Position numbers and translations under genes: made by a program. From Escherichia coli (GTDB lineage Bacteria > Pseudomonadota > Gammaproteobacteria > Enterobacterales > Enterobacteriaceae), in the NCBI RefSeq assembly GCF_003334815.1, contig NZ_QOWO01000015.1: a stretch of 64,000 bases of DNA. One strand, given 5' to 3'. The notes below the pieces were generated by a model. The model saw only the letters and a list, made by a program, of their open reading frames with translations, had not been told where the DNA came from and did not search any database. Of the stretch, positions 328-54,302 are shown piece by piece (within the stretch, counting starts at the first letter, position 1; each line of letters begins with the position of its first letter).

Positions 328-1950
<1,623 letters not shown>

Positions 1951-1989
1951 CAATGCATTCCGGCCTGCAGTGCAGGCCGGAGATAATCT

Positions 1990-2406
1990 TCAGATCGAAA
2001 TCTTTTTACCGCCGCGATGGGTTGTTGAGGTCTGACCGTTCGCCCCATATAGCGTCGGTTCCTGATGCGGTTTCAACATTTCCAGCGCCTGTTGATTGCG
2101 CTCAATCTGTCCTTCCAGTAACCAGCCGTTATGTTGATTCATTTGGCGTAGTTGCTGCGTTTTCACAGTAATTTCCTGCCAGCGTTGACTAATATCAACG
2201 CTATTTGCTGTATTGGGTTCTTTCCTGCGTAACTGTTCGAGGTAATCCAGCGTCGCCAGCAGTGAGCTTTTTTGTTCTGTAATCCATTGCAACTGGCTGC
2301 CGTTGATCTGCCCCATAGAGAGATGTTGCTGCTCTTGATCCATTACCGTTTTGAGATCGTTAAGCACAGCGGACATCTGGTCGAGGATCTCTGCAAGACG
2401 TGTCAT
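1990..2406 (-). CDS. flgN: Flagellar export chaperone FlgN, 138 aa
   Basis: 138-aa ORF ending ...TSTTHRGGKKISI, directly downstream of flgM on the same strand. Confidence 0.9.
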   Translation of the reverse strand: MTRLAEILDQMSAVLNDLKTVMDQEQQHLSMGQINGSQLQWITEQKSSLLATLDYLEQLRRKEPNTANSVDISQRWQEITVKTQQLRQMNQHNGWLLEGQIERNQQALEMLKPHQEPTLYGANGQTSTTHRGGKKISI

Positions 2407-2410
2407 ACGA

Positions 2411-2704
2411 TCAGTTACTCTGCAAGTCTTGCTGCGCTTCGTTGATCAGCGCATCGGCAATTTTGCCGGTGTCCATTTTTAGTTCACCGTTACGAATCGC
2501 CAGTTTTAACGCTTCGACACGTTCAAGATTGATATCACTGCTGCCGGGTTGCATCAGTTTTGCTTGCGCGTCGCTTAACGTCACACTGGTGCTGGTGGAG
2601 GCGGTTGTTTTTGCCGCCCGGCTGTTCGTTACCGGCGCGTCAGTGGTTTCGCGCGGTTGAACGGTGCTTACAGGCTTCAGAGGCGAAGTGCGATCAATAC
2701 TCAT
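2411..2704 (-). CDS. flgM: Anti-sigma-28 factor FlgM, 97 aa
   Basis: 97-aa [19 protein letters not shown]...; size, sequence and position between flgN and flgA. Confidence 0.92.
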
Positions 2705-2747
2705 GGTTTATTCCTCATTGAGGGCGCTTTTATCATGTGTTGCTTAT

Positions 2748-2774
2748 TTATCGGCAAGGGACGGGTAATCTTTA
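2748..2774 (-). promoter_or_regulatory. Sigma-28 (FliA) class 3 promoter for flgMN: TAAAGATT-N11-GCCGATAA
   Basis: Minus-strand reading of 2767-2774 gives TAAAGATT and of 2748-2755 gives GCCGATAA with an 11-nt spacer, about 45 nt upstream of the flgM start codon. Confidence 0.7.
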
Positions 2775-2779
2775 ACAGC

Positions 2780-3439
2780 TTACAGGTTTATAAGAATATT
2801 CCCATCTGCATCAACAACGCCGCTGACTACCTGTCCCGATACCATGCGCACCCGCGCATTCTGTGCGACGGCTGCATTGTTCAGCGCCTGACCTTCTGCG
2901 TTGGCGCTAAACCCATCACCGCTGGCGATCACATTGACGCGTTGTCCCGCTTTTACCCGCCATGCCTGGCGAAACTGGGTTAACTGGATAGGTTGATCGG
3001 GTGATAGATCGCGCAGGCTAATGGCATCAACAAGTTGATTGATATCCAGCACCGTACGCGGTGGCAGGGTATCCAGCCGTCCGCGTTTCAGTTTGACATT
3101 GCCAGCTTCCAGCTTTCCTCCCCGCGCAATGGGCATCGCGGCAACCACATAATTTCCTGTGGCCTGTACATTAACCTGTAAATATCGTTTGTCGTTACCG
3201 CAGCGTGCCAACACATTCACATTGCCCCACAGGCGGGAATTATTGCTCATCGAAAGCAATGGCTGCTCGCATGGCGGTAGTAGATTGGGCGCTGTACGAA
3301 TAGAAACACGAACCTCATCACTTACCCCCGCGAGTTGGGCGCTAAAAAAGTTGTGCAATTGCGATGTGAGATTGCTCGCCGTACTTAACGGACTGAACAG
3401 TATCGCGATGATCGCCACGCTACGTTTTATTATCAGCAT
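2780..3439 (-). CDS. flgA: Flagellar P-ring assembly chaperone FlgA, 219 aa
   Basis: 219-aa ORF with N-terminal signal peptide MLIIKRSVAIIAILFSPLSTA; divergent from flgB. Confidence 0.9.
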   Translation of the reverse strand: MLIIKRSVAIIAILFSPLSTASNLTSQLHNFFSAQLAGVSDEVRVSIRTAPNLLPPCEQPLLSMSNNSRLWGNVNVLARCGNDKRYLQVNVQATGNYVVAAMPIARGGKLEAGNVKLKRGRLDTLPPRTVLDINQLVDAISLRDLSPDQPIQLTQFRQAWRVKAGQRVNVIASGDGFSANAEGQALNNAAVAQNARVRMVSGQVVSGVVDADGNILINL

Positions 3440-3593
3440 TTTCGCCCCCAGCCATTTCTACAACGTGAATTGTACCTGTCCGCAATGACCATCAACGGCA
3501 TAAATAGCGACCCATTTTGCGTTTATTCCGCCGATAACGCGCGCGTAAAGGCATTTAAGCTGATGGCAGAATTTTGATACCTGCGGAGGAGAT
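3440..3593. promoter_or_regulatory. Divergent flgA / flgB promoter region (FlhDC-dependent class 2); contains GCCGATAA at 3530-3537 on the plus strand
   Basis: 154-bp intergenic region between divergent flagellar operons; FliA-type -10 octamer about 57 nt upstream of flgB ATG but no good TAAA -35 at the canonical spacing. Confidence 0.5.
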
Positions 3594-4010
3594 ATGCTCG
3601 ATAAGCTCGACGCCGCCTTACGTTTTCAACAAGAGGCGCTCAATCTGCGCGCCCAGCGTCAGGAAGTGCTGGCAGCAAACATCGCCAATGCCGATACCCC
3701 TGGTTATCAGGCGCGCGATATCGATTTTGCCAGTGAACTTAAAAAAGTCATGCAACGTGGACGGGATGCAACCAGTGTGGTTGCACTGACGATGACCTCA
3801 ACGCAACACATTCCGGCGCAGGCGCTGACGCCTCCTACCGCAGAACTGCAATACCGTATTCCGGACCAGCCTTCGCTTGACGGTAATACCGTCGATATGG
3901 ATCGCGAACGCACCCAGTTTGCCGATAACAGCCTGCAATACCAGATGAGCCTTAGCGCGTTGAGCGGGCAAATCAAAGGCATGATGAACGTTTTACAGAG
4001 TGGAAATTAA
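3594..4010 (+). CDS. flgB: Flagellar basal-body rod protein FlgB, 138 aa
   Basis: 138-aa [45 protein letters not shown]; rod-protein N-terminal motif. Confidence 0.95.
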
Positions 4011-4013
4011 CGG

Positions 4014-4418
4014 ATGGCACTGCTGAATATTTTTGATATCGCCGGGTCGGCGTTAACTGCCCAGTCCCAGCGCCTGAACGTGGCGGCCAGTAATCTGGCG
4101 AATGCTGATAGCGTGACCGGTCCCGATGGACAGCCATATCGGGCAAAACAGGTGGTATTCCAGGTTAACGCTGCACCAGGTGCTGCGACAGGCGGCGTAA
4201 AGGTTGCCGATGTTATAGAAAGTCAGGCCCCGGACAAACTGGTTTATGAACCGGGTAATCCGCTGGCAGATGCAAAGGGCTACGTAAAAATGCCGAACGT
4301 TGATGTTGTCGGAGAGATGGTTAACACCATGTCGGCGTCACGCAGCTATCAGGCCAATGTTGAAGTGCTCAACACGGTGAAAAGCATGATGCTGAAAACC
4401 CTTACGCTCGGTCAATAA
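4014..4418 (+). CDS. flgC: Flagellar basal-body rod protein FlgC, 134 aa
   Basis: 134-aa [36 protein letters not shown]; operon position. Confidence 0.95.
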
Positions 4419-10893: not shown

Positions 10894-10920
10894 TCAAGTC
10901 CGGCGGGTCGCTGCCGATAA
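10894..10920 (+). promoter_or_regulatory. Sigma-28 class 3 promoter for flgKL: TCAAGTCC-N11-GCCGATAA
   Basis: Perfect GCCGATAA -10 at 10913-10920 with a 5/8 match to TAAAGTTT at 10894-10901, 34 nt upstream of the flgK ATG. Confidence 0.65.
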
Positions 10921-10953
10921 TACTCTGTAATTGAAGGCTTATAAGGAACCTCC

Positions 10954-53844: not shown

Positions 53845-54302
53845 GGGCGGGACTTCCGTTTCCTGCGTGATTTTTTAGAGGAGGGCATACTTATTAATAA
53901 ACCGACGGCGATAAAAATAACGCCCATAATGCCGATAAACCCCCATTTAAAAAAATTAACCCACGGGTTATTTATCTCAGCCTTTTCAGGATGCCCGGGA
54001 GAATAATAAACATTAACTTTATCGCCTTCGCTGTCTTCATAAAAATCGCTGCCGATACTCGAATTGAAAATTAGCGTGTAATCTGGCGTCGGTCGAAAGG
54101 CAACGACGGGATACCACGAACCATCTTTACCCGTGCGATGAGAATGACTGGAGTGCCAGACGGTATCAACAATGACGCCTTCGGTATGAATCGCGTCTTT
54201 GCTATAGGTGAACTGGTTATAAAAGACAACAACAGAAATGAGGATCAGTACCAGACCGATACCGAGGAATATACGAAAGAAAACTTTACTGTCCTGACTC
54301 AT
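53841..54302 (-). CDS. ymfA: Inner-membrane protein YmfA, 153 aa
   Basis: ORF-track frame 53841..54311; ATG at 54302 gives [28 protein letters not shown]; ATGA overlap with ycfZ. Confidence 0.85.

Follow-up and report, generated by a model that had tools for sequence, protein, structure and literature searches.

The sigma-28 motif between flgA and flgM of Escherichia coli almost certainly corresponds to the known class 3 promoter flgMp

Main finding

The 27-nt motif at positions 2748-2774 (minus strand) of the window, by which we mean the whole stretch of 64,000 nucleotides of E. coli DNA that was analysed, is almost certainly the FliA (sigma-28)-dependent class 3 promoter that serves the flgMN unit in E. 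coli K-12. This conclusion is backed by data, obtained here or published, on the motif itself, its statistical significance and its conservation, on FliA occupancy, on the start site, on binding of the holoenzyme and on the sufficiency of FliA. The finding is correct but ordinary, as it recovers the already documented E. coli flgMp and adds nothing biologically. Its by-products are small and include a profile of promoter conservation across genera and the observation that one public dataset calls a conflicting start site. The promoter is not itself new; the leader that it creates may be.

Sigma-28 RNA polymerase binds TAAAGATT and GCCGATAA, 11 bp apart, and initiates at 2741-2743, producing a flgM-flgN mRNA with a leader of about 37-39 nt, and both genes are reached as well by transcripts that start at the FlhDC/sigma-70 class 2 promoter ahead of flgA and read through. 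Since FlgM is the anti-sigma factor of FliA, the promoter closes a negative feedback loop in which free FliA leads to more FlgM, its own inhibitor; once the hook-basal body is complete, FlgM is exported through it and FliA is released. The promoter is in this way part of the textbook flagellar checkpoint, where sigma-28 drives its own anti-sigma factor and FlgM export frees sigma-28. We infer the quantitative role of this loop from what is established for the flagella of Salmonella and E. coli.

The motif in its genomic setting

Positions 876-4176 of the window correspond to positions 1128300-1131600 of the E. coli K-12 MG1655 chromosome (NC_000913.3), with one mismatch in 3.3 kb, a T at window 4001 (plus strand) against a C in the reference, near the 3' end of flgB. 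Coordinates were converted by subtracting 1127424 from NC_000913.3 positions, or 1126647 from those of the older version U00096.2, where flgM lies at 1129058-1129351. The latter conversion is confirmed by the starts that Romero 2014 lists for three other flagellar genes, which fall at window 3462 for flgA (U00096.2 1130109), at 3568-3569 for flgB and at 10929 for the class 3 start of flgK. Open reading frames and annotation place murJ at 376-1950 (plus strand), flgN at 1990-2406 (minus strand), flgA, the first gene of the FlhDC-dependent class 2 flgAMN operon, at 2780-3439 (minus strand) and flgB at 3594-4010 (plus strand). The open reading frame of flgM (b1071 in NC_000913.3), which encodes the 97-aa anti-sigma-28 factor, occupies 2411-2704 on the minus strand, and flgN, downstream of it, is co-transcribed with it in the flgMN unit.

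A gap of 75 nt separates the flgA stop codon (TAA, 2782-2780) from the flgM ATG at 2704, and the minus strand reads across it as CTGTAA GCTGT TAAAGATT ACCCGTCCCTT GCCGATAA ATAAGCAACACATG. The sequence-only reading had placed a sigma-28 motif in this spacer, with canonical spacing and a perfect -10 octamer, and our search recovered it at exactly the same coordinates and with these very properties. Its -35 octamer TAAAGATT (2774-2767, minus strand) agrees at seven of eight positions with the -35 half of the published sigma-28 consensus, TAAAGTTT-n11-GCCGATAA (PMC2859248), and is part of the FliA ChIP-seq motif (Fitzgerald 2014). It is followed on the same strand by the spacer ACCCGTCCCTT (2766-2756), of the canonical 11 nt, and by the -10 octamer GCCGATAA (2755-2748), which includes the critical CGA and matches the consensus at all eight positions. 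The motif is wholly intergenic: it begins 5 nt past the stop codon of flgA, and 43 nt separate it from the ATG of the co-oriented flagellar gene flgM; its -35, its spacer, its -10 and its position are thus all those of a sigma-28 class 3 promoter.

Statistical significance of the match

The simplest objection is that the motif matches the consensus by chance and has no promoter function, and such matches do arise by chance, an example being a 22-bit match in ymfA at 53912 that is not a reported FliA site. We nevertheless give this explanation next to no credence. In a pattern search of the window the flgM motif was the sole match with zero mismatches, 0.48 matches with three or fewer mismatches being expected by chance. 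We also scored the window with a FliA weight matrix of 28 positions built from 23 ChIP-seq sites with a FAT score above 4 (Fitzgerald 2014), the two FliA ChIP-seq sites that lie inside the window having been left out of the training set. The flgM site reaches 27.6 bits, which is the top score of the window and is beaten by a single training site, whereas 200 sequences of 64 kb, simulated with a first-order Markov model and searched on both strands, gave a maximum that averaged 14.6 bits and never rose above 19.9. Against chance also stand the conservation of the motif at 78 of 78 loci around a spacer of variable sequence and the functional support from ChIP-seq, start-site and EMSA data, both of which are described below.

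The ymfA match itself, TAAAAATAACGCCCATAATGCCGATAAA at 53912-53939 (plus strand), scores 22.0 bits on the same matrix and so exceeds the simulated maximum of 19.9. It lies antisense within ymfA and is not one of the 52 sites at which Fitzgerald 2014 found FliA by ChIP-seq; the GCCGATAA that it contains comes from the Phe-Ile-Gly codons of a membrane segment encoded on the opposite strand.

Conservation across genera and within E. coli

For the comparison across genera we took one genome per species with FlgM, which gave 80 Enterobacteriaceae loci from genera including Citrobacter, Salmonella, Enterobacter, Buttiauxella, Lelliottia, Cedecea, Kosakonia and Atlantibacter and from other Escherichia species. 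The best match to the consensus was sought in the 130 nt upstream of flgM, with spacers of 10-12 nt allowed, and 78 of the 80 loci were usable, the upstream flank being too short in the other two. Every one of the 78 carries a -35 starting with TAAAG and a -10 starting with GCCGAT, 11 nt apart, and a motif-blind MAFFT alignment of the flgM loci returned the same invariant blocks. Each octamer carries 1.81 bits of information per position, whereas the spacer has 0.93 and the flanks have 0.85-0.89. The 64 distinct promoter stretches contain 47 distinct spacer sequences, in which the last T is the only invariant base; at position 6 of the -35 an A is found in 91% of these 64 sequences, and the consensus T in none. 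Octamers that stay constant at a fixed distance while the spacer varies freely are the signature of selection on two protein-contacted elements.

Within the species, 5198 of 5426 complete E. coli genomes share exactly the same 45 nt at 2738-2782, whereas the surrounding 1.3 kb show at least 99% identity in only 2658 of the same 5426. The substitutions seen in strain AST85 (the most divergent variant examined), in E. albertii, in E. whittamii and in a divergent E. coli fall outside both octamers, and all the substitutions that occur inside the 27-nt motif within Escherichia are in the spacer.

FliA binding and the transcription start

FliA occupies this site in the cell. The 28-mer TAAAGATTACCCGTCCCTTGCCGATAAA (window 2774-2747) is the FliA ChIP-seq site called flgMN in Table 2 of Fitzgerald 2014, with a FAT score of 48 that places it among the stronger of the 52 FliA sites (PMC4183435). 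In vitro, an EMSA showed binding of the sigma-28 holoenzyme to a pflgM fragment (PMC11310293), and pflgM reporters have been treated as class 3 promoters or behave like them (PMC4295839; PMC2859248).

The sequence-only reading had predicted a transcription start near 2740, within about 10 nt downstream of 2748, and such a start is on record. Table S2 of Romero 2014 contains a TAP-enriched 5' end for strain BW25113, RVS_(II)-1129390 (Left 1129388, Right 1129390, U00096.2; PMC4681348), which converts to window 2741-2743, that is 5-7 nt downstream of the end of the -10 octamer at 2748. This start cluster (G, C, A; minus strand) agrees with the flgM mRNA constructs of Romilly 2020, whose 5' end AACACATG corresponds to window 2741 (PMC7549644). 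It defines a class 3 flgMN 5' UTR of 37-39 nt at 2705-2743 (minus strand), in which the Shine-Dalgarno sequence GAGGA (2716-2712) is preceded by CCTC (2723-2720). A true sigma-28 promoter had therefore been spotted from the sequence alone, and its start predicted to within 1-3 nt. According to a methods paper of 2024, neither a dedicated single-gene experiment nor in vitro transcription had ever been used to map the E. coli flgM promoter, whose elements Park et al. 2001 had deduced from the sequence (PMC11310293).

A different flgM start, at U00096.2 1129417, is given by Kim 2012 with 14 reads and by Cho 2014 with 21, and Cho 2014 assigns this end to sigma-70 ('D'). It converts to window 2770 (minus strand), which is the G of TAAAG in the -35 octamer, some 27-29 nt upstream of the sigma-28 start. 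One may imagine an additional or alternative flgM start that depends on a sigma-70 promoter lying at the 3' end of flgA and to whose transcript the sigma-28 motif would be incidental; besides the two listings, TTGATG-N16-TATAAA at 2814-2787 (minus strand) could be invoked in its favour. We regard this as very unlikely. Both tables present the data of one laboratory, with low read counts, and the position does not appear in the list of Romero 2014. The end of the TATAAA is 17 nt upstream of 2770, too great a distance for that start, a consensus scan gave no sigma-70-like site on the minus strand, and the candidate stretch is flgA coding sequence, the conservation of which is uninformative. Such a start would moreover leave the FliA ChIP occupancy and the conservation of the motif unexplained. 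As no suitably spaced -10 precedes the end at 2770, we reject a sigma-70 origin for it and regard it as probably a minor or processed end, the start of the class 3 transcript being the cluster at 2741-2743.

Another regulator had been linked to this unit, Brown et al. 2014 having assigned to flgMN an NtrC ChIP-seq peak obtained under nitrogen starvation (U00096.2 1129181-1129261, window 2534-2614). We do not retain NtrC as a regulator of the flgM promoter, since the EMSA of Brown et al. with phosphorylated NtrC was negative for the probe.

FliA dependence and read-through from flgA

The sequence-only reading had also proposed that flgM is transcribed in a FliA-dependent manner in addition to being read through from flgA. 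The second proposal is borne out by the data of Fitzgerald 2014, which support overlapping flgAMN and flgMN operons (PMC4183435), and by our search of the flgA-flgM spacer, which found no terminator-like site on the minus strand and thereby makes read-through from flgA plausible. On the first proposal the data point two ways. Overexpression of FliA in an flhD mutant brings flgM expression back to the wild-type level or higher (PMC4183435) and FliA is bound at the site, so that FliA can drive the gene; in RNA-seq, however, deletion of fliA lowered flgM only from 451 to 318, a change that is not significant, whereas deletion of flhD took flgAMN from 319 to 3 (PMC4183435). A dependence in the sense that flgM falls markedly when fliA is lost was thus not seen under those conditions. 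The sequence-only reading had named two outcomes as evidence against itself, a missing start just downstream of 2748 and fliA-independent expression; both were looked into, and neither overturns its claim. We attribute the modest effect of the fliA deletion to class 2 read-through, from which most of the transcript comes under those conditions, and the contribution of the class 3 promoter is therefore condition-dependent.

These values also feed a more serious alternative, according to which the site is a genuine FliA-bound promoter that is minor for E. coli flgM in ordinary growth, most transcription coming from FlhDC-dependent read-through of flgA, and the class 3 start would matter only at high FliA activity, for example after FlgM export, in swarming or during filament repair. 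The authors of Fitzgerald 2014 themselves conclude that FliA adds little to dual-regulated transcripts under their conditions (PMC4183435). The start in Romero 2014 is moreover of class II, that is TAP-enriched with no step increase in coverage over upstream transcription, a class which its authors expect when a stronger promoter lies upstream of an alternative, nested one (PMC4681348). Yet with its FAT score of 48 the peak ranks among the stronger ones for FliA, and the fact that both octamers are strictly conserved from genus to genus speaks for functional selection; Stefan et al. 2015, for their part, found a class 2 reporter near background and took the class 3 promoter as dominant (PMC4295839). 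We consider a minor role a real possibility, albeit clearly not the favoured one.

Comparison with known promoters

The element is identical in sequence and position to the E. coli K-12 flgMp of Fitzgerald 2014 that Park et al. 2001 had inferred, and we see no difference between the two. Its counterpart in Salmonella enterica, PflgM, likewise lies between flgA and flgM, at the orthologous place, has an identical -35 TAAAGATT and the same 11-nt spacer length (loci L014 and L032 of our set), and shares the dual class 2 / class 3 architecture. This Salmonella class 3 promoter is said to have been genetically dissected by Gillen and Hughes in 1993 and by Wozniak and Hughes in 2008. It differs in its -10, which is GCCGATGA (7/8) where E. 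coli has GCCGATAA (8/8), in its spacer, TTGTCGCG(A/G)CT, which is unlike the E. coli ACCCGTCCCTT, and in a leader about 16 nt longer, the distance from -10 to ATG being 59 nt against 43 in Escherichia.

In E. coli itself the closest comparisons are flgKp and fliDp, which are likewise sigma-28 promoters nested downstream of an FlhDC-dependent operon, bound by FliA and little affected by fliA deletion. The flgKp sequence, TCAAGTCC-N11-GCCGATAA at window 10894-10921 (plus strand), has a FliA FAT score of 47 (site flgKL, Fitzgerald 2014) and the Romero 2014 start at 10929. Its -35 TCAAGTCC is much weaker, so that flgKp scores 16.0 bits against 27.6 for flgM despite its strong ChIP occupancy, and it lies within the end of flgJ whereas the flgM promoter lies in an intergenic spacer. 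A perfect GCCGATAA, here without a sigma-28-like -35, is also found upstream of flgB (3530-3537, plus strand), at about -38 to -31 relative to the class 2 start of flgB (3568-3569); overexpression of FliA in an flhD mutant does not rescue flgB expression (Fitzgerald 2014, Figure S6; PMC4183435).

The leader of the class 3 transcript

The leader of the flgM transcript contains an ATG at 2736-2734 (minus strand), 5-7 nt past the class 3 start, which opens an upstream open reading frame of 11 codons (2701-2736) that ends in a TGA overlapping the start codon of flgM. In 48 of 75 non-redundant Enterobacteriaceae loci an ATG stands equally far from the -10, and the frame that it opens mostly ends in or beside the Shine-Dalgarno sequence or the ATG of flgM. 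The frames of the upstream ATGs and the positions of their stops vary, six of the 75 sharing the frame of flgM, and this speaks against a conserved coding role for this open reading frame; our literature search found no paper tying flgM to one. The leader also carries CCTC-N3-GAGGA (2712-2723, minus strand), a mini-hairpin of 4 bp that takes in the Shine-Dalgarno sequence of flgM and is invariant in all 28 representative genera. For that reason covariation cannot be tested, and RNAalifold, applied to the 28 representative leaders, returned only this invariant CCUC/GAGG stem of 4 bp with no covariation, a result uninformative for or against structure. Folding of the E. coli flgM leader gave no significant structure (z = 0.09).

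It is conceivable, and in our opinion quite improbable, that these features of the class 3-specific leader, the upstream ATG and the mini-hairpin, which the context of the class 2 read-through transcript may mask, could underlie a FlgN-dependent, transcript-specific translation of class 3 flgM mRNA. Such FlgN-dependent translation, specific to the class 3 transcript, was reportedly described from Salmonella genetics by Karlinsey et al. in 2000.

Two further observations concern RNA features. In other genera a GC-rich segment of about 17 nt lies in the leader just upstream of CCTC-N3-GAGGA, and Escherichia lacks it. A scan of the whole window against Rfam gave no RNA family at the flgM leader and two matches elsewhere, both above the gathering score and both known K-12 features: rne5, the RNase E 5' UTR element, at 16968-17304 (minus strand), and the SraB sRNA at 19166-19334 (plus strand).
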